A stretch of 64,000 nt of DNA, taken from positions 518,296 through 582,295 of the forward strand of contig CAVURN010000005.1 in NCBI GenBank assembly GCA_963743915.1, in the 5' to 3' direction. Every line of letters starts with the position of its first letter. The first letter of the stretch is position 1. The position numbers were made by a program, and so were the translations under genes. The notes beneath the pieces were generated by a model. The model saw nothing but the letters and a program-made list of their open reading frames with translations, was not told the DNA's origin and made no database searches. Of this stretch, positions 3,807 through 52,313 are shown in pieces. This stretch comes from an uncultured Actinomycetota bacterium. Lineage in GTDB: Bacteria; Actinomycetota; Actinomycetes; JAHEKZ01.

Positions 3807-4604
3807 ATGACCCAAGAGCGCTACACCCATGGACACCACGAGAGCGTGCTGCGGTCACACTCCTGGCGCACGATCGCCAACTCCGCCGCCTACCTCGAGC
3901 CCTGGCTGCGTCCTGGGCTGCGCATCCTCGATGTCGGCTGCGGCCCCGGCACCATCACTGCAGAGCTCGCCGATCGGGTCGGCCAGGACGGCAACGTGGT
4001 GGGCATCGACGCCTCGCCAGGAGTGATCGCCCGAGCGTCCGCGACGATGTCACGTGACAATGTCACTTACACCGTGGGCGACGTCTACGCGCTGGACGCT
4101 GACGACGACAGCTTCGACGTGGTGCACGCCCATCAAGTGCTGCAGCACCTGGCTGATCCGGTCTCGGCCCTCGTCGAGATGCGACGCGTGTGCCGCCCAG
4201 GTGGAGTGGTTGCCGCCCGGGACAGCGACTACCCGACGATGGCCTGGCACCCGTATCCCCCTGAGCTCTCAGAGTGGCTCGCCCTCTACACGTCGATCAC
4301 GCGCGTGAACGGTGGCAACCCCGATGCCGGGCGTCTGCTGCTGTCGTGGGCTCAACAGGCCGGCTTCACCGACATCACCCCATCCGCAAGCGCGTGGTGC
4401 TTCGCGACGCCGGGTGAGCGCGAGTGGTGGGCAGGGCTGTGGGCCGATCGCGTCGTCCAGTCTTCGCTTGCCGATCAGGCGGTGAGTGGAGGGTTTGCCA
4501 CGCGTGCCGACCTCGATCGGATCGCGGGCGCGTGGCGGCAATGGGCGGCTCACGAGGACGCTTGGTTCGCGATGCTCCACGGAGAGATCCTGGCTGTGGC
4601 ATGA
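3807..4604 (+). CDS. SAM-dependent methyltransferase (UbiE-like)
   Basis: ILDVGCGPGTIT motif I; FDVVHAHQVLQH. Confidence 0.9.
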   Translation: MTQERYTHGHHESVLRSHSWRTIANSAAYLEPWLRPGLRILDVGCGPGTITAELADRVGQDGNVVGIDASPGVIARASATMSRDNVTYTVGDVYALDADDDSFDVVHAHQVLQHLADPVSALVEMRRVCRPGGVVAARDSDYPTMAWHPYPPELSEWLALYTSITRVNGGNPDAGRLLLSWAQQAGFTDITPSASAWCFATPGEREWWAGLWADRVVQSSLADQAVSGGFATRADLDRIAGAWRQWAAHEDAWFAMLHGEILAVA

Positions 4605-5698
4605 GTACCACCGGCGGGTCGGCGCCAGACGCTGTCACCGTGACGCCGGAGTGGGTGCTGCACGTCGACCTCGACCAGTTCATCGCGGCGGTGGAGATCC
4701 GCCGGGACCCGTCGCTGCGCGGCCGACCGGTGGTCGTCGGGGGCGACGGGGACCCGACCCGCCGTCGACAGGTGGTGGCGACCGCGTCGTACGAGGCTCG
4801 CGCCTTCGGCGTCCGCTCGGGCATGCCGCTGTCGACCGCCGCCCGCCGTTGCCCGGACGCCGTGTTCCTGCCCAGCGACCACGAGGCCTACGACGCGGCG
4901 TCGGAGGAGGTGTGGACGGTCGTCCGCGAGCTCCCCGTGGTCACCGAGGTGTGGGGCTGGGACGAGGGCTTCGTCGGCGCCGACGTCGACAACCCAGAGG
5001 AACTGGCCCACCGGATCCGTCGCACGGTCGCCGAGCGGACGGGGCTCACGTGCTGCGTCGGGATCGGCGACAACAAGCTCCGCGCGAAGATCGCCACCGG
5101 GTTCGCCAAGGCTCCGAAGGGTGCGTTGCCAGCGGATGCACCAGGCGTCTTCCGGCTGACCAAGGAGAACTGGCTCGAGATCATGGGCGACCGTCCCACC
5201 GACGCGCTGTGGGGGATCGGCGCCAGGACCAGCGAGAAGCTCGCAGACCTGGGGATCTCGACCGTCCGTGAGCTCGGGGCGGCCGACCTGGACGCGATGC
5301 GGGCTCGTTTCGGGCCGAAGACCGGCCCGTGGCTGGTCTCGCTGGGGCGCGGCCTCGGCGACCGCACGGTGACGAACGCCCCGTGGGTGCCCCGTGGCCG
5401 CAGCCGCGAAACCACCTACGAGCACGACGTTGTCGAGCGCACGGACCTCGAGGACAAGCTGCGGCAGCTCGCGGCCGGCGTCGTAGCCGACGTCTCACCG
5501 ACCGGACGCGCCATCACCCACGTCGGCATCAAGGTGCGGTTCGTGCCGTTCTTCACCACGACGCGCGTGCACAAGCTGCCTTCCCCGACGCTGGATGCTG
5601 CCGTCGTGGCCGACAATGCGGTCGCGCTGCTCGATCGGCTGGAGCTCGGGCGTCCGATCCGGCTCCTCGGCGTCCGCGTCGAGCTGACTGACCCTTGA
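4601..5698 (+). CDS. dinB: Y-family DNA polymerase IV (DinB2-like)
   Basis: LHVDLDQFIAAVE, ATASYEARAFGVRSGMP, WDEGF, LWGIG, RLLGV motifs. Confidence 0.93.
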   Translation: MSTTGGSAPDAVTVTPEWVLHVDLDQFIAAVEIRRDPSLRGRPVVVGGDGDPTRRRQVVATASYEARAFGVRSGMPLSTAARRCPDAVFLPSDHEAYDAASEEVWTVVRELPVVTEVWGWDEGFVGADVDNPEELAHRIRRTVAERTGLTCCVGIGDNKLRAKIATGFAKAPKGALPADAPGVFRLTKENWLEIMGDRPTDALWGIGARTSEKLADLGISTVRELGAADLDAMRARFGPKTGPWLVSLGRGLGDRTVTNAPWVPRGRSRETTYEHDVVERTDLEDKLRQLAAGVVADVSPTGRAITHVGIKVRFVPFFTTTRVHKLPSPTLDAAVVADNAVALLDRLELGRPIRLLGVRVELTDP

Positions 5699-5750
5699 GG
5701 GGCTCCGTGGTCCGGCGTGGCACGGGCGGTTGGCTGCGTGCGGCTGGGTT

Positions 5751-5795
5751 TGGGTGCAGGAAGTGCTGCCATGGCGACACTTTCTGCTCCCAGTT
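5751..5795. repeat. Hairpin family A, copy 1 (downstream of DUF559-type gene)
   Basis: TGGGTGCAGGAAGTG...CACTTTCTGCTCCCA imperfect inverted repeat; near copy of 6796-6841. Confidence 0.85.
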
Positions 5796-5804
5796 CGCGA
5801 GGGA

Positions 5805-6695
5805 TCAGGCTGCCCGGGGCGTCCTGGTCGCGAAGAAGCGCGCAAGGACTTCCGCCACCCGCTCCCGCTGGTGGCGGAGTGCGAAGCCGGCGAACCGTAG
5901 CAACGCCTTCCGCTCGTGCACGACGAGTTCGTTGTTGCGCATCATGTCCTCCCACCACGCCAGTGCCTCCATGTGCTGCATGCCATCGATCTCGACGACG
6001 AGCCCGAACTCCTCGAACTCGATGTCGAGATAGCGCCAGCGGCCGGCGGCGTCTCGACGCCGCTGCTGCCTCGTGGGAGTTGGGAACCCGTAGTCGCGAC
6101 ATAGCCTCAGGAAGAGGACCTCATACTCGCTCAGTGACCCGCCGCTGACGTCCTCGATGGTTTCCACAATCAGCGCACGACGTCGGAGCGAAGGCATCCG
6201 CGCTACCACCTCGCCCAGCGAATGCCCCGTCACCAGGCCTTGCTGGACGCCACAGGCCAGGATCGCCTGACAGCGCAGGCTGGTGGTCGCCAACGACGCA
6301 GCGTCGACCAAGGATCTCGGCAGTCGCGTCCGCCGGGGCCGGCGCACCGGGTGAATGTCAATGTCCGTCAGAGTCCGACTTCGCGTCACTGAGACATCGA
6401 TGCGCGGGCGAATGCGGACGTCGTGCGGTACGCAGATGAAGACGGTAGTCGTGGCGAAACCCTGAAGGCCGTCGAGCGATGCCGCCGTGAGACCGGCGAG
6501 CACAGCGGACCGGTGCTGGATCAGCAGCTCGCTGGTCAGTCGCTCGTCGCGCGTCAGCGACCCGGAGTGGAGCACCACGACACCCTTGGCCGGCCGCTGC
6601 CAACGCCCCGACTGCACCATCCACCGCACATGGTGACGCCCGTAGCGGGCAAAGGCTTCGTGCGACCGGAGAACTGTTGCGTGCTGTTGAGCCAT
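5805..6695 (-). CDS. AbiEi-like / DUF559 (Vsr-like PD-(D/E)xK) endonuclease-domain protein
   Basis: SGRWQRPAKGVV, AVLAGLTAA, TRLPRSLVDAA, SLSEYE, YLDIEF...VVEIDGMQH...EDMMRNN; no adjacent AbiEii toxin. Confidence 0.8.
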   Translation of the reverse strand: MAQQHATVLRSHEAFARYGRHHVRWMVQSGRWQRPAKGVVVLHSGSLTRDERLTSELLIQHRSAVLAGLTAASLDGLQGFATTTVFICVPHDVRIRPRIDVSVTRSRTLTDIDIHPVRRPRRTRLPRSLVDAASLATTSLRCQAILACGVQQGLVTGHSLGEVVARMPSLRRRALIVETIEDVSGGSLSEYEVLFLRLCRDYGFPTPTRQQRRRDAAGRWRYLDIEFEEFGLVVEIDGMQHMEALAWWEDMMRNNELVVHERKALLRFAGFALRHQRERVAEVLARFFATRTPRAA

Positions 6696-6795
6696 CGGAC
6701 GACCATGACCAGTTCGAGCGGTCTGCGGGTGTGGGATCGCCTCCCTGTGGATGCACCGACCTCGACCTCGATGTGAATGGAGGGCATCCGAGGTG

Positions 6796-6841
6796 CTGGG
6801 TGCACGAAGTGCTGCTCTGGCAGCACTTCGTGCACCCAGTT
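6796..6841. repeat. Hairpin family A, copy 2 (upstream of DUF559-type gene)
   Basis: Perfect 20-bp arms CTGGGTGCACGAAGTGCTGC-tctg-GCAGCACTTCGTGCACCCAG. Confidence 0.9.
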
Positions 6842-6856
6842 GCGGTCGCTGCACGT

Positions 6857-6890
6857 CGAAGGCCCGCATCCCTGGGGATGCGGGCCTTCG
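6857..6890 (-). terminator. Stem-loop downstream of groEL
   Basis: CGAAGGCCCGCATCCC-tg-GGGATGCGGGCCTTCG, 25 bp after the groEL stop. Confidence 0.75.
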
Positions 6891-6914
6891 TGCCGTGCTG
6901 TGGTGAAGCGTGGA

Positions 6915-8645
<1,731 letters not shown>

Positions 8646-9192: not shown

Positions 9193-9260
9193 GTTTTCTA
9201 CGTCAGGGCGCCACGATTACCCGTCCCGTGGCGTGACCATGGCGCTCTGGCGTAGAAAAC
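9193..9260. repeat. Hairpin family D, copy 1
   Basis: GTTTTCTACGTCAGGGCGCCA...TGGCGCTCTGGCGTAGAAAAC; direct copy at ~10696-10758. Confidence 0.85.
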
Positions 9261-9267
9261 GAGTGGC

Positions 9268-10683
9268 TCAGGGAGTCGGCGCCACCAGCGGCCAGGGGCG
9301 GGCCTGCTCGAGGGCCAGACCCACCGCGAACGCCGTCGCGTCGTCGTAGCCAGCCGCCACGACCTGCACGCCGATCGGCACCCCGGACGCCGCCCGCCCG
9401 GCCGGGAGGGCGAGCACCGGGCAGCGGTTGGCGATGTTGAACGCCTCCGACAGGTGGATGTCGTGGAAGGAGTCCCGCTCGATCCCGTCGACCACCAGCG
9501 GCTGCTCGCTGTGGTCGACGCCGGCGGCCAGCGCCGGGACCGCCATGACGGGGCAGAGCAGCGCGTCGTGCTCGGCGAGCACCCGGTCGACCCGCTCGGA
9601 CACGACCGCCTCCGCCTCGCGGGCAGCGAAGAACGAGGTGTCGGTCCGGTCCGCGGCGAGCTCGGCCAGCCAGTTCCTCGTGTAGGCGTTGAGCTCGTCC
9701 TCGCGGCCGGCGACGAGCACCTCGCAGCTGGCGGCGAACAGGTTCCCGTTGTGACCGTTGGACGCCTGACGCACCAGCTCGCGCTCGATCGTCAGGTCGA
9801 CGGGCGTGACGATCGCGCCCTGCTCCTCCAGGGCGCGGGCGGCGTCCGAGACCGCGGCCCGCACCTCGTCGGTCACCGGCCAGTCCCCGAGGTCGAGCGA
9901 GAGCGCGATGCGCGTCCCGCGGACGTCCGGCGTCACCTCGACCAACCGTGTCTGCTCGCGCAGCGAGAAGTGGTCGCGGACGTGGCGGCCGCTCGCGACG
10001 TCGACCATCAGGGCCGCGTCCGCCACGGTGCGCGTCAGCGGCCCCACCCCTGACCAGTCGTCCCGCCCCCATGCGCCGGCCACGGGGATGCGACCGGACG
10101 GAGGCAGGTAGCCCACGACGCCGCAGCAGGACGCCGGCACCCGGATCGAGCCGCCGATGTCCGAGCCGGTGGCCCACGGCGTCATGCCGGACGCCACCGC
10201 GGCCGCCGAGCCGCCACTCGAGCCGCCGACGTCGAAGGCGGGGTTCCACGGGTTTCGCGTGACGCCCCACATGCGGCTGTGCGTCCAGAACGGGATGGAG
10301 AACTCGGGGGTGAGCCCACGGCCGTGGATGACCGACCCGGCCTCGACGAGTCGCTCGACGATGGGGTCGGACTCCTCCGACACGTAGTCGGCCCACAGCA
10401 GCGAGCCGTTGGTGGTGCGGCGTCCGGCGATCTCGGTCTCGTCCTTGACGACGACCGGCAGGCCGTCGAGCCGACCGGAGGGCTCACCCCGGGCGTAGCG
10501 GTCGGCAGCTGTCCTGGCCTGCGCCAGCGCGTCCTCACGGTACTGGTCGCCGAGCGCGTTGATCTCAGGCTGGACGCTGTCGATGCGCGCGCACAGCGCT
10601 TGGAGGTACTCGACCGGGGACAGTCGCCGCTCACGGAACTCGCGCAGCACGTCGCGCACCGACCAGTCGACCAGCTCGACCAC
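9268..10683 (-). CDS. Amidase signature family protein (start uncertain, 10683 or 10701)
   Basis: GLPVVVKD, GGSSGGSAAAVA, GSDIGGSIRVPAS (Lys-Ser-Ser triad). Confidence 0.93.
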   Translation of the reverse strand: MVELVDWSVRDVLREFRERRLSPVEYLQALCARIDSVQPEINALGDQYREDALAQARTAADRYARGEPSGRLDGLPVVVKDETEIAGRRTTNGSLLWADYVSEESDPIVERLVEAGSVIHGRGLTPEFSIPFWTHSRMWGVTRNPWNPAFDVGGSSGGSAAAVASGMTPWATGSDIGGSIRVPASCCGVVGYLPPSGRIPVAGAWGRDDWSGVGPLTRTVADAALMVDVASGRHVRDHFSLREQTRLVEVTPDVRGTRIALSLDLGDWPVTDEVRAAVSDAARALEEQGAIVTPVDLTIERELVRQASNGHNGNLFAASCEVLVAGREDELNAYTRNWLAELAADRTDTSFFAAREAEAVVSERVDRVLAEHDALLCPVMAVPALAAGVDHSEQPLVVDGIERDSFHDIHLSEAFNIANRCPVLALPAGRAASGVPIGVQVVAAGYDDATAFAVGLALEQARPWPLVAPTP

Positions 10684-10695
10684 CGCGACCTCCGA

Positions 10696-10758
10696 TTCCA
10701 ACGCCAGGGCGCCATGATGCCCCGTCCTGCGGCGTGACCATGGCGGTCTGGCGTAGAA
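10696..10758. repeat. Hairpin family D, copy 2
   Basis: ACGCCAGGGCGCCATG...GGCGTGACCATGGCGGTCTGGCGTAGAA, same orientation as copy 1. Confidence 0.8.
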
Positions 10759-20124: not shown

Positions 20125-20135
20125 GCCTCCCGGCA

Positions 20136-20184
20136 ACAACGTGTAGGACTCGTGGGGTCATAGGCCCACAGTTCCTACACGATG
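20136..20184. repeat. Hairpin family B, solo copy
   Basis: ACAACGTGTAGGACTCGTGGGGTCATAGGCCCACAGTTCCTACACGATGT between convergent genes. Confidence 0.9.
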
Positions 20185-20388: not shown

Positions 20389-20586
20389 GCGTCACTCCCC
20401 AGTCGTTTCGTCGACGATCTCGCCGACCGGCACACCGTAGTCCGATGTCCGCAGCGCAGCCTACGCCCCCCTTCGACCGTTTTGAGCGGAGGCTTGACCC
20501 CCGAGGGCCGTGTCGGCCCCGGATTCACGCCATTGGGGTAAGGAGTCCGGCCCATGGCCCGGAAGAGATTCCCCAAAGGCGTGCCG

Positions 20587-24348: not shown

Positions 24349-24813
24349 ATGATCCACCACCTTTCGATCCCCGCCCGCGACCCGCACCACACCGTCGAGG
24401 TGTTCTGCGAGCTGTTCGGCGGCGGCGTCGTCACCCCGTTCGGCCCCTACCCCGGCTCGTGGATCGCCTGGTCCGGCGACGAGCACGGCACCGCCGTCGA
24501 GTGCTACCCGGTCGGCACCGAGATGTACCCGCCCGACGGCCCCGAGCAGGCGCAGTTCCGGCACGATCCCCGCGCCACCGGACACACCGCGACGCACGCC
24601 GCCATCTCGGTCGACCTCGAGGTGGACGAGGTGCTGGCGATCGCCGCCCGCGAAGGCTGGCGGGCGCTCGTGCTGCCCCGGGGTGGCTTCGACGTGATCG
24701 AGTTCTGGATCGACAACACCGTGATGATCGAGCTGCTGACCCCTGCGATGGCATCCGACTACCTGTCCGTGGTGCCGCGCTCGGCAACCAGCACAGCTTC
24801 CAGCAACGTGTAG
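24349..24813 (+). CDS. VOC/glyoxalase-fold protein
   Basis: IHHLSIPARDP, THAAISV, FDVIEFWIDNTVMIELL; stop codon lies inside hairpin B. Confidence 0.7.
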   Translation: MIHHLSIPARDPHHTVEVFCELFGGGVVTPFGPYPGSWIAWSGDEHGTAVECYPVGTEMYPPDGPEQAQFRHDPRATGHTATHAAISVDLEVDEVLAIAAREGWRALVLPRGGFDVIEFWIDNTVMIELLTPAMASDYLSVVPRSATSTASSNV

Positions 24814-24850
24814 GGAGTGTGGGGTCATGGCCCCCAGAAGGCACACGTTG
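24804..24850. repeat. Hairpin family B, degenerate solo copy
   Basis: CAACGTGTAGGGAGTGTGGGGTCATGGCCCCCAGAAGGCACACGTTG. Confidence 0.82.
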
Positions 24851-30283: not shown

Positions 30284-30296
30284 CCTGCCCCTCGCC

Positions 30297-30346
30297 ACAA
30301 CGTGTAGGAATCGTGGGCCCATGACCCCACGGTCCCTACACGTTGT
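30297..30346 (-). repeat. Hairpin family B, left flank of AbiEi/DUF559 gene
   Basis: ACAACGTGTAGG...CCTACACGTTGT; inverted relative to the 31376 copy; contains the gene's TAG stop. Confidence 0.92.
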
Positions 30347-31316
30347 TGAGCTGGACGGCGAGGCAGCCGGGGCTGCACGCCTTGAGCGGACCTGGCCACC
30401 CGTGGTGGGACAGGACTGTGCCCACCTCCAGTGCGGCTCGACAAGGTTCTTCCATGTCGGCATGGCCGTACCGGAGAGTTGACTTCCTGCTCACCGTGCT
30501 CGCGTTGTCGCGGCGCATGTCGCGGTGGCGCCCTGAGCCCTCGTGGCCGGCGCGTCCGTCGAGCTCGACGACCGTCTCGTACTCGTCATAGTGGACGTCC
30601 TTGCGGGTCGTCACGCCGTTCAGCCGTGACAGCACCTGACGGCGCCCAGTGGGCAAGCCGTGCGATCGCTCCACTCGGATGAGGTACTTGTGCTCGAGGG
30701 GGCTCTCGATGCCGCCGACCACGTCGCACAGCACATCCTTGACCAGCTGACGGTGCCGTTGGCGGCGACGGTGTCCCATCGCCTCCAGGATGGCTACTGG
30801 GGCCACGGCGTCCGTGCGACAAGCGTCGGTGATCAGGCCGACAACGGCGTCCGGCGCCCGCAGCTGGCCCACGAGATCGAGCACCGTGTCGGCGGGCGTG
30901 GTGATCGGCCAGCCCTGATATGTGGTGTCCTTGCCCGGGAGAAGGCGTGAGCGGTGCAGACGCACCCCCGGGGGAGGGACGACGACGCGGTCGGCGGGTA
31001 CACAGACATGCACCCACCGACTGCGCGGGAATGGGACGGTGAAGACCTCAGCGGCAGTCTCATGGCTGAGGACCGCACCCTCACCGCACGCGAGGAGCGC
31101 CGCCCACCGCACGCTCACGAAGGCCGGGGCCATGTTGCCGAGCAGGAAGATGCCCTCATGCAGCCGGCGGCACCGCCCCGCGGCGATCTGACTTCGCACC
31201 ACCTCATAGCCGAATCCGAGCTGATCGATCTGGCTGCGCGAGAAGACGCCCCCTTGCGTCCGGGCAAGCGTGCGGAGGGCGTCCAGCATCTGTGCACCAC
31301 GAGTCACCGAAGACAT
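30336..31316 (-). CDS. AbiEi-antitoxin-like wHTH + DUF559-like nuclease-domain protein
   Basis: LARTQGGVFSRSQ..GRCRRLHEGIF, AVLSHETAA, PITTPADTVLDL, GIESPLE, DVHY..VVELDGRAGH..DMRRDN; no toxin partner. Confidence 0.82.
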   Translation of the reverse strand: MSSVTRGAQMLDALRTLARTQGGVFSRSQIDQLGFGYEVVRSQIAAGRCRRLHEGIFLLGNMAPAFVSVRWAALLACGEGAVLSHETAAEVFTVPFPRSRWVHVCVPADRVVVPPPGVRLHRSRLLPGKDTTYQGWPITTPADTVLDLVGQLRAPDAVVGLITDACRTDAVAPVAILEAMGHRRRQRHRQLVKDVLCDVVGGIESPLEHKYLIRVERSHGLPTGRRQVLSRLNGVTTRKDVHYDEYETVVELDGRAGHEGSGRHRDMRRDNASTVSRKSTLRYGHADMEEPCRAALEVGTVLSHHGWPGPLKACSPGCLAVQLNNV

Positions 31317-31375
31317 GGACGCACCTTGGTGCGTCCTCCCGACGCGGCGCAGGCGTTCGCTCCCCCTGTGCACAA

Positions 31376-31423
31376 CAACGTGTAGGAACTGTGGGGTCAT
31401 AGGCCCACGATTGCTACACGTTG
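31376..31423 (+). repeat. Hairpin family B, right flank of AbiEi/DUF559 gene
   Basis: CAACGTGTAGGAACTGTGGGGTCATAGGCCCACGATTGCTACACGTTG. Confidence 0.92.
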
Positions 31424-31427
31424 CGGG

Positions 31428-51042: not shown

Positions 51043-51094
51043 GGGTGCGGTGTGACACCGTTCCCGTTGATTGCAGGAATCACCGCACCCATGG
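51043..51094 (+). repeat. Hairpin family C, copy 3
   Basis: GGGTGCGGTGTGACACCGTTCCCGTTGATTGCAGGAATCACCGCACCCATGG. Confidence 0.88.
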
Positions 51095-51309: not shown

Positions 51310-51486
51310 GTGGAGATGCTGATCGGCCTGGTAGTCGTGGCTGTCCTGATCGCGCTCCTCATGTGGCTGCAGGTCCGGCGCGACAACCCAAGACATCGAG
51401 GCAGCGACCGGCCACGGGAGGTCTCCGACGGGGCGCCGCGGACACCACCACCCGGCATCGACGGCTTCTTCCGCGGCTCAGGCTGA
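51310..51486 (+). CDS. Small single-TM protein (58 aa)
   Basis: GGGAG RBS; MLIGLVVVAVLIALLMWLQVRR. Confidence 0.5.
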   Translation: MEMLIGLVVVAVLIALLMWLQVRRDNPRHRGSDRPREVSDGAPRTPPPGIDGFFRGSG

Positions 51487-52222
51487 GGCGCTGTCGGTCA
51501 GGCGGATGCGGAGGCGGCGGAACCCCTTGCCCTTGTTCTCCACCTTGACGACCTCGATGCCCGCCGATCTGACGCGTCGACGCCACGTGCGTCCCGCCGT
51601 CCGCCTGGGTGTCGAGCCCGACGATGTCGACGATGCGCACGACCTCGAGCTCGGGTGGCAGCAGGTTCGTCGCGGTGCGGATGATGTCGGGGATCTGGAA
51701 CGCCTCGTCGCGCGGCAGGGTCTTCACCTCGATCGCCCGGTCGGCGGCGATCTCCTCGGCACACCCCTGGGCAACGCGCTCCTTGAACCCTTCCGGCACC
51801 TCCGGGAGGTTGAAGTCCATCCGCGCCTCGAGCGGTTCCATGTTCCCGCCGGTCACGAGGCACCCGTACTCGCGGAACACGACGCCTGACAGCAGGTGCA
51901 GCCCCGAGTGCGTCCGCATCAGCGCAGTGCGGCGGTCGTCCTCGATCGCGCCACGCACCGAGGTGCCGGCCGGTGGCACCGGGTCACCTTCGGCGGGGAC
52001 GAGCCGGATGTCGTCACCCCGTCGGGCTCCGACGATCCGCGTCTGCACACCACCCCACAGCAGGACGCCGTGGTCCGGCGGCTGTCCCCCGCCGCCGGGA
52101 TAGAAGGCGGAGCGGTCGAGCACGATCCCGTCCTCGTCGACGTCGAGGACGGTGGCGTCCCACTCACGCAGCGTGGCGTCCGTGAGGTCGAGGCGTTCGG
52201 TGCGTCCGTGGTCGTGTCCCAT
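51478..52222 (-). CDS. Alanyl-tRNA editing protein AlaX (frameshift near 51560)
   Basis: LDRSAFYPGGGGQP, MRTHSGLHLLS, QADGGTHV. Confidence 0.88.
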
Positions 52223-52261
52223 GGGGAGAGCCAACCACGTGCCGGACGTGCCGCGCGGCGT

Positions 52262-52313
52262 CCATGGGTGCCGCCATACCTGCAATCAACGGGAACGGTG
52301 TCACACCGCACCC
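52262..52313 (-). repeat. Hairpin family C, copy 4 (inverted relative to copy 3)
   Basis: First 35 nt of its reverse complement are identical to copy 3. Confidence 0.88.

Follow-up and report, generated by a model that had tools for sequence, protein, structure and literature searches.

AbiEi-DUF559 proteins and their private palindromic repeats in Actinomycetes: a possible REP/RAYT-like partnership built on a different enzyme

Results

The locus and its palindromes

The subject of this analysis is a gene for a 296-aa protein, together with the pair of palindromes that encloses it, in a stretch of 64,000 nucleotides (G000:C5:518296-582295, hereafter the window) from an uncultured Actinomycetes lineage, whose genome (G000) comprises 2.9 Mb with 70% G+C and is 90% complete. 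The features of the locus are collected in Table 1. According to the preliminary description, the gene lies between dinB and groEL and is bracketed by a pair of hairpins, of which one has perfect 20-bp arms and the other is degenerate; the open reading frame (ORF) and both copies of the repeat, termed family A below, were located there, with 20/20 arm positions paired in one copy and 15/19 in the other. The ORF is the only one between the two hairpins and its start position matches that of its homologues. The gene is free-standing and intergenic, with no intron or intein around it and no cytosine methyltransferase adjoining.

Table 1. Positions of the main features in the window and of the domains in the 296-aa protein
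Feature	Position	Strand	Remarks
296-aa gene	5805..6695	minus	ATG at 6695; start MAQQHATVLRS; includes ...YLDIEF...VVEIDGMQH
AbiEi-like winged-helix module	residues 3-184	minus-strand gene	assigned by fold and PADLOC profile
DUF559/Vsr-like PD-(D/E)XK nuclease domain (predicted)	residues 187-293	minus-strand gene	assigned by fold and family profile
Upstream (5') family-A palindrome	6796..6839	none	44 nt; 20-bp arms 100% complementary; 4-nt loop
Downstream (3') family-A palindrome	5751..5795	none	degenerate; 15/19 arm positions pair
5' spacer	6696..6795	minus	from upstream palindrome to start codon; presumably promoter or leader
dinB	ends 5698	plus	one neighbour of the 296-aa gene
groEL	6915-8546	minus	other neighbour of the 296-aa gene
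Other unit of the window, ORF	30336-31427	minus	flank score 42
Other unit of the window, family-B palindromes	30295-30351, 31370-31426		57-nt copies

The perfect palindrome sits 100 nt ahead of the start codon and the degenerate one begins 9 nt past the stop codon; the segments 5751-5795 and 6797-6841 are direct 45-nt copies, 82% alike. The 19-mer arm of family A occurs 3 times in the window at no more than 1 mismatch, against 0.02 occurrences expected from 100 shuffles. Folded as single-stranded DNA, the perfect copy reaches -28.7 kcal/mol (z -10.3, 0/200 shuffles as good) and the degenerate copy -10.3 kcal/mol (z -1.8, 10/200 shuffles as good). The comparison of 19 family-A copies revealed that the outer TGGGTGC/GCACCCA is unchanged in all of them, that 85.5% of the cells pair (slid controls: 36-48%), and that 9/20 arm pairs are changed on both sides, with a covariation score reached by 0/500 shuffles. 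The palindromic symmetry of the family is, to judge from these copies, preserved through sequence change.

Neither of the two hairpins is listed by the consensus scan for intrinsic terminators and neither is followed by a T-run, the scan being blind to terminators that lack one. The Rfam search of positions 5000-7500 identified no known RNA family, only sub-threshold microRNA look-alikes on the perfect hairpin. Another hairpin, directly behind groEL (6857-6890, 16-bp arms), is unrelated in sequence and falls outside family A. The promoter consensus scan found no sigma-70-like consensus in the 5' spacer, which contains a moderately conserved block with indels at about 6724-6763 (mean pairwise identity 0.46-0.47 vs 0-0.26 around it). 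Four DNA runs compared with positions 4800-7800 gave short contigs that break around both hairpins, none of which spans the unit, and a few joints with sides of only 20-30 letters; they hold no usable evidence on deletion or inversion variants.

Domain composition of the protein

Direct Pfam matches of the 296-aa protein fall below the cut-off (AbiEi_4: 15.3 bits, cut-off 25; DUF559: 14.6 bits, cut-off 20.6). The PADLOC AbiEi profile covers residues 16-169 (E-value 1.6e-10), the profile built from 39 homologues retrieves the DUF559 structure 3hrl (NGO0050, E-value 5e-4), and PF04480 is present in the precomputed annotation of many homologues at 40-50% identity. Structure comparison of the AlphaFold2 model (mean predicted local distance difference test score, pLDDT, 86.9) revealed that residues 3-184 match the whole of the AbiEi antitoxin 6y8q (Z-score 12.1, root mean square deviation 4.1, 175 residues aligned) and also Rv2827c (1zel, Z-score 8.9). 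Residues 187-293 match 3hrl (Z-score 7.7), the catalytic domain of I-Bth0305I (3r3p, Z-score 7.1) and Vsr (1cw0, Z-score 5.8); since these last three values fall in the range that the tool calls "common", the assignment of the nuclease fold needs sequence and structure together.

The residues E192, D224, E235, G238, H241, D250 and R274 do not vary among the 39 sequences, and the acidic and histidine residues among them are likely to be the catalytic positions, given their placement in the PD-(D/E)XK pattern. The stretch coding for ...EIDGMQHMEALAWWEDMMRNNE shows the highest conservation of the entire cassette (pairwise identity 0.8-0.98), and dN/dS (the ratio of non-synonymous to synonymous substitution rates) among the orthologues ranges from 0.12 to 0.25. 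The gene is evidently functional and its predicted nuclease core under purifying selection. Homodimer prediction for the protein gave a score of 0.30, with the tool's mark at 0.42, which is evidence neither way. An AbiE toxin-antitoxin pair was also considered and ruled out: the gene stands alone between its hairpins, and the AbiEii toxin family (PF08843) has no match in G000, as far as the 90% of that genome reaches.

Paralogues with repeats of their own

A protein search, Pfam-family searches and an unbiased scan for ORFs with mutually similar flanks identified 10 intact AbiEi_4/DUF559-like genes in G000, along with one frameshifted copy and one N-terminal fragment. There are no near-identical copies, the closest paralogue being 38% identical to the 296-aa protein. 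For each gene the left flank was compared with the right one by gapped local alignment in both orientations; 498 control ORFs gave a median score of 12.5, with the 95th percentile at 15.5 and the 99th at 29. The intact genes score 25 (the 296-aa gene), 42 (the other unit of the window), 29, 51, 25, 67.5, 33, 19, 17.5 and 14, i.e. 9/10 exceed the control 95th percentile; scores of 11.5 and 13.5 were obtained for the frameshifted copy and the N-terminal fragment, respectively. The flank pairs differ in sequence from paralogue to paralogue and are mostly hairpins of 45-65 nt, one pair consisting of inverted arrays of a 32-nt unit. Their orientation is inverted in 6 of the 9 pairs above the threshold, the other three being family A, paralogue 11 and paralogue 9; family A and paralogue 11 scored best as direct repeats, but for family A the direct and inverted readings coincide, as it is a near-perfect palindrome.

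The ungapped version of the scan, run on 1862 ORF proxies, yielded 23 with a score of at least 17, among them 7 members of the family. The rest include tandemly duplicated genes, two ordinary genes between solo copies of repeats, and a known insertion sequence (IS) transposase gene with inverted ends, whose recovery serves as a positive control.

The preliminary description had called the hairpin family of the 296-aa gene unrelated to that of the other paralogous gene of the window and had argued that two such gene-plus-own-hairpin units are no coincidence. The alignment of the two proteins, which it had suggested, confirms their relationship at 27% identity (E-value 3e-13), and the 57-nt family-B copies, inverted to each other, are unrelated in sequence to family A. 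The argument against coincidence is borne out by the 9/10 paralogues and by the more distant homologues described below.

The 32-nt unit (CCCGCCGAGTGCTGGGTTGGTTGACGCCA...) forms the inverted arrays that enclose the paralogue C5:20871-21878, outside the window (G000:C5:20763-21980). Matches of 23-31 nt related to it stand in tandem at C2:554887-555204, and long palindromes related to it are found at C3:168521, C3:173273 and C2:614976.

Dispersed copies

BLAST searches of G000 with each flanking repeat gave copy numbers of 6 for family A, the count that the genome search proposed earlier was to supply, 4-6 for B, 4-8 for E, 25 for F and 10 for G. Most copies follow the stop codon of an unrelated gene at a distance of 3-21 bp, between genes that are in tandem or convergent, and only 3/25 family-F copies have divergent genes on either side. 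The RAYT/Y1 transposase family (PF01797) has no match in G000 (90% complete).

Several copies fall within the window. Two copies of the 61-nt repeat F (9204-9258 and 10699-10758), in direct orientation, flank an amidase-like gene (9268-10701), while the paralogue bracketed by family F is at G000:C3:486512-487504. Inverted copies of family G, which brackets the paralogue at G000:C1:646303-647403, flank a 309-aa ORF (51359-52285, minus strand) at 51043-51068 and 52288-52313, which indicates that a pair of solo copies can come to enclose an ordinary gene as well. Intergenic solo copies at 20134-20181, 24804-24830 and 20533-20584 belong to family B (two) and family E (one). A further family of long palindromes (CTTGAGGTTGGGGGCAGACACG..., arms up to 27 bp) has about 7 copies in the genome and no partner gene was found for it; its members are at G000:C1:115001, C2:771374, C2:782507-782606, C1:534527, C3:549722 and C3:231284.

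The unit in sister species

The comparison with 13 other genomes of the genus was anchored on a methyltransferase (MT) gene and groEL. The order is MT, hairpin-gene-hairpin, dinB, solo hairpin, lipoprotein gene, groEL in G006; MT, hairpin-gene-hairpin unit, lipoprotein gene(s), groEL in G005 and G008; and MT, hairpin-gene-hairpin unit, groEL in G007. In G012 and in G000 the unit adjoins groEL in the opposite orientation. G003 has MT, dinB, lipoprotein gene and groEL with no hairpin in the interval, and in G010 groEL follows MT directly, the unit being absent from the interval. Thus, the position of the unit and its orientation (two) vary between the same anchors, and inspection of the dinB-groEL junction in relatives, which had been proposed as a check, finds a variable MT-groEL interval with the unit present in G005, G006, G007, G008 and G012. 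The whole interval (window 3807-8546, loci L034-L045) is a rearrangement hot spot of the genus, where dinB, one or two lipoprotein-like genes and the nuclease cassette come and go in varied combinations; the nuclease gene of G008 is split over two overlapping frames, a probable frameshift.

The alignment of six cassettes gives a similarity of 0.27-0.37 outside the hairpins, 0.63-0.74 in the hairpins, 0-0.47 in the 5' spacer and 0.5-0.98 in the gene. The hairpins are the edges of the conserved unit, since homology of the cassettes starts and ends there. The orthologues are old: silent sites are saturated between G000 and the others (dS, synonymous substitutions per site, 1.4-1.6), with dS of 1.4-2.6 for G000 and G012 against the other orthologues. 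The G000 hairpins have kept the same distinction between a 5' and a 3' type as those of G005, G007 and G008, which suggests that the unit was moved or turned as a whole, with no exchange between its two palindromes; on the same ground a flip of the cassette by recombination between its own palindromes was rejected. No recognisable half-site was found in the empty interval of G010, where divergence is too great to place the junction exactly, and no target-site duplication was seen beyond the palindromes.

Repeat type and protein type

Within the genus the type of the flanking repeat goes with the type of the protein. The clade nearest to the 296-aa protein has TGGGTGCA..AAGTG hairpins in 6/6 genomes; the homologues G005:C16 and G008:C244 (61-63% identity to the 296-aa protein) have ATGTTGTTGCACTAAC-type hairpins on both sides, and those at G002:C4 and G010:C17 (58-59%) have GATGATGCAGGGGTTTCCG-type hairpins on both sides. 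The homologue G003:C2 (48%) shows a weaker flanking pair of its own. At G001:C234, a locus near the contig end, no flanking repeats were found. The family tree resolved some of the sub-clades and was used only for the grouping of G002 with G010 (100/100) and of G001 with the G005 homologue on C82; rows G, H and 9 were in the wrong frame. The flanking hairpins of G012 (L038 1675-1716 and 2711-2752) have the inner arm TTTTGGGGCG in place of CGAAGTGCTGC, whereas the two solo copies of that genome keep the usual AAGTG form.

Family-A hairpins occur in all 6 genomes with a close gene, 3-6 in each, and none was found in G001, G002, G004, G009, G010 and G011, i.e. in 6/8 genomes without a close gene. 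The type also differs by genome at orthologous gene-end sites. The site orthologous to the solo copy G000:C1:524512 carries the A1 type in G000, G006 and G007, A2a in G005 and G008, and A2b in G002, with degenerate relics at the same site in G010 and G001 and an empty 34-bp spacer in G004; the site of G000:C3:271314, behind another conserved gene, is occupied by altogether different palindromes in different genomes. Such sites are therefore re-used by whichever repeat family the genome maintains.

Relatives of the 296-aa protein (E-value of at most 1e-15) were identified in 107/201 sampled Actinomycetes genomes, with the unpublished G025 and G050 included in the tally; Phytoactinopolyspora and Motilibacter are among the genera with homologues. 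Outside the genus, the 24 best loci, with that of G050 left out, were compared with 96 mismatched-locus controls: 18/24 exceed the control 95th percentile in flank-to-flank score and 16 exceed all 96 controls. Their flanking repeats are private to each locus and mostly palindromic. The claim of one hairpin family per protein clade thus finds support in the genome, in the genus and in the class. It had been conceded at the outset that the hairpins might turn out to be ordinary terminators, present in relatives without the gene. Such occurrences do exist, in G006 (the solo hairpin behind dinB, with no gene alongside) and in G003 (three solo copies, no close gene), but these hairpins behave as dispersed copies of a repeat rather than as ordinary terminators, and six gene-less genomes have none.

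The centres of otherwise unrelated hairpins, from both genus and class loci, share an AT-containing core (CCATGG, CTATAG, CTATGA). A YATR core is present in 6/14 clear hairpins from other genera, as compared to about 2% of random 8-mers. This shared centre is suggestive: it may be a common cutting site or a mere loop preference, loops being free to be AT-rich.

Discussion

Proposed partnership

Bacterial genomes commonly have short palindromic repeats at the ends of their genes. To our knowledge, only one kind of them has been matched with an enzyme of its own, namely the repetitive extragenic palindromes (REPs) with the REP-associated tyrosine transposases (RAYTs), described mainly in Proteobacteria, for which the source is reportedly Nunvar 2010. 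The arrangement described here is, with a probability that we estimate at roughly 0.55, another such partnership, formed by a family of nucleases with palindromes of their own and using an enzyme unrelated to RAYTs. The AbiEi-like winged-helix module would read the arms of the cognate palindrome, and this would account for the private repeat family of each protein clade. The module is a natural candidate for this role because AbiEi antitoxins bind inverted repeats (PMC7319586). The DUF559/Vsr-type nuclease domain would nick or cut at or near the palindrome, and repair or strand exchange at the cuts would keep the copies alike, seed copies at new sites just behind genes, and occasionally move or flip the hairpin-gene-hairpin unit itself. 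The gene would be retained in a single copy between two of its own sites, with mostly vertical inheritance.

A number of observations weigh against this proposal. Binding of the palindromes, cutting and the resulting spread are steps that we infer from the anatomy of the units. Detectable flanking repeats are missing from 6/24 class loci, from the homologue G005:C82 and from the tenth intact paralogue of G000 (paralogue 10, score 14). A1-type solo copies are present in two genomes without a close gene, three in G003 (91% complete) and two in G013 (73% complete), and the co-occurrence counts of family A are descriptive rather than independent, because they come from related genomes, several of them incomplete. 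With only 3-4 solo copies in each genome, family A falls far short of the classical REPs. In G005, G007 and G008 the upstream and downstream hairpins fall into separate orthologous lineages, which means that the copies are not being homogenised and argues against frequent turnover at the gene. Moreover, the sense-strand mismatches are G-T in 13 cases and A-C in 5, and this excess could mean a role as an RNA structure.

Alternative explanations

The same anatomy could belong to an autonomous mobile cassette, a small transposon-like or homing element that terminates in the palindromes and owes its mobility to the DUF559 nuclease, with the solo copies as footprints or targets. Such an element would account for a conserved unit that stops exactly at the hairpins, for its varied positions and both orientations between the same anchors and its absence from G003 and G010, for the G006 solo hairpin behind dinB, which sits where G000 has the cassette, and for related cassettes with variant hairpins at other loci; the resemblance of the nuclease domain to the catalytic domain of a homing endonuclease (I-Bth0305I, Z-score 7.1) points the same way. 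We nevertheless consider it unlikely, as there is one copy per repeat family per genome with no near-identical copies, silent sites are saturated between orthologues that share a neighbourhood (dS 1.4-2.6 for G000 and G012 against the others), in keeping with long vertical descent, no target-site duplication was seen, and in family F there are up to 22 solo copies for each gene, more than footprints by themselves would account for. Or perhaps the protein is a regulator and the palindromes its operators? The AbiEi-like module would then regulate its own gene through the upstream palindrome and a small regulon through the solo copies, and the downstream copy and the solo copies would be terminators or RNA stabilisers, with the nuclease domain otherwise employed or inactive. 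AbiEi antitoxins do autoregulate via inverted repeats in promoters (PMC7319586), and the 100-nt distance of the upstream palindrome from the start codon, the location of most copies just behind stop codons, i.e. in terminator territory, and the mismatch bias (G-T 13 vs A-C 5 on the sense strand) would all fit. It leaves unexplained, however, why almost all units have another copy past the stop codon; copies are found at the 3' ends of unrelated genes rather than in promoters (only 3/25 family-F copies are in divergent intergenic regions), the hairpins lack a trailing T-run, and the nuclease residues are invariant, in the part of the gene that is the most conserved (0.8-0.98). A purely regulatory role thus seems improbable.

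Chance resemblance among ordinary gene-end hairpins deserves a mention, inasmuch as G000 contains 134 hairpins with arms of at least 15 and high-GC actinobacterial genomes are rich in long hairpins at gene ends. It is very hard to reconcile with three arm motifs in the window against 0.02 expected, with paired flanks in 9/10 paralogues (5% background) and 18/24 distant homologues, or with the different sequence of the gene-end hairpin of the neighbouring groEL, and we give it almost no weight.

Relation to known systems

The nearest counterparts of the proposed nuclease-palindrome partnership are the REPtrons, in which RAYT genes are flanked by cognate REPs and REP/REPIN copies are dispersed in the genome (PMC3337134, PMC3116915, PMC5581495). 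The likeness extends to a gene present once between inverted copies of its palindromic repeat, with one repeat family per protein clade, to further copies dispersed extragenically, mostly at 3' gene ends, and to an inheritance that looks mostly vertical, with repeats persisting at orthologous sites. The enzyme, on the other hand, is AbiEi-like with a predicted PD-(D/E)XK domain (Vsr/DUF559), whereas RAYT is a HUH/Y1 transposase, and the palindromes are longer (42-61 nt) and their copies few (6-25), with about 10 pairs in one 2.9-Mb genome.

The AbiE type IV system combines the AbiEi antitoxin with the AbiEii nucleotidyltransferase toxin (PMC3985639, PMC7319586). The AbiEi antitoxin fold is matched in full by residues 3-184, which the PADLOC AbiEi profiles also recognise, but the unit lacks an AbiEii gene and none was found in the rest of the genome, a nuclease domain is joined to the module, and repeats occur on either side of the gene as well as at other genomic sites. 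Vsr, DUF559 and the homing endonuclease I-Bth0305I have been grouped together (PMC3424549); the C-terminal 107 residues share that fold and the acidic and histidine residues are invariant, yet, in contrast to Vsr-fold and homing endonucleases, the gene is outside any intron or intein and is not placed beside a cytosine methyltransferase. With IS elements and miniature inverted-repeat transposable elements the unit shares inverted repeats that bound a single gene, shorter gene-less copies, and a position and orientation that vary by species; it differs from them in that no known transposase family, target-site duplication or identical within-genome copies were seen, and in that the orthologues are old and syntenic. 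A full-text literature search, whose coverage left out most subscription journals, found no link between DUF559 or AbiEi-DUF559 proteins and palindromic repeats among the matches listed.

Implications

A family annotated merely as 'DUF559', 'AbiEi antitoxin domain protein' or 'very-short-patch-repair endonuclease' shows an architecture of a gene plus its private repeat. In a wider formulation, which we offer tentatively and at less than even odds, the AbiEi-DUF559 proteins could be the enzymes of a previously unrecognised and widespread class of palindromic repeats in Actinomycetes, each clade of which would recognise, cut and propagate its own double-stranded family, by a PD-(D/E)XK chemistry and on a form of DNA that differ from the single-strand chemistry of HUH enzymes; about ten such systems per small genome would shape gene ends and local rearrangements. 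If the proposed partnership is true, it would assign a function to the AbiEi-DUF559 family, explain the origin of many gene-end hairpins in high-GC genomes, and correct the 'antitoxin' annotation where no toxin is present. It would also supply natural pairs of a protein and its DNA site with differing specificity, which are open to direct testing.

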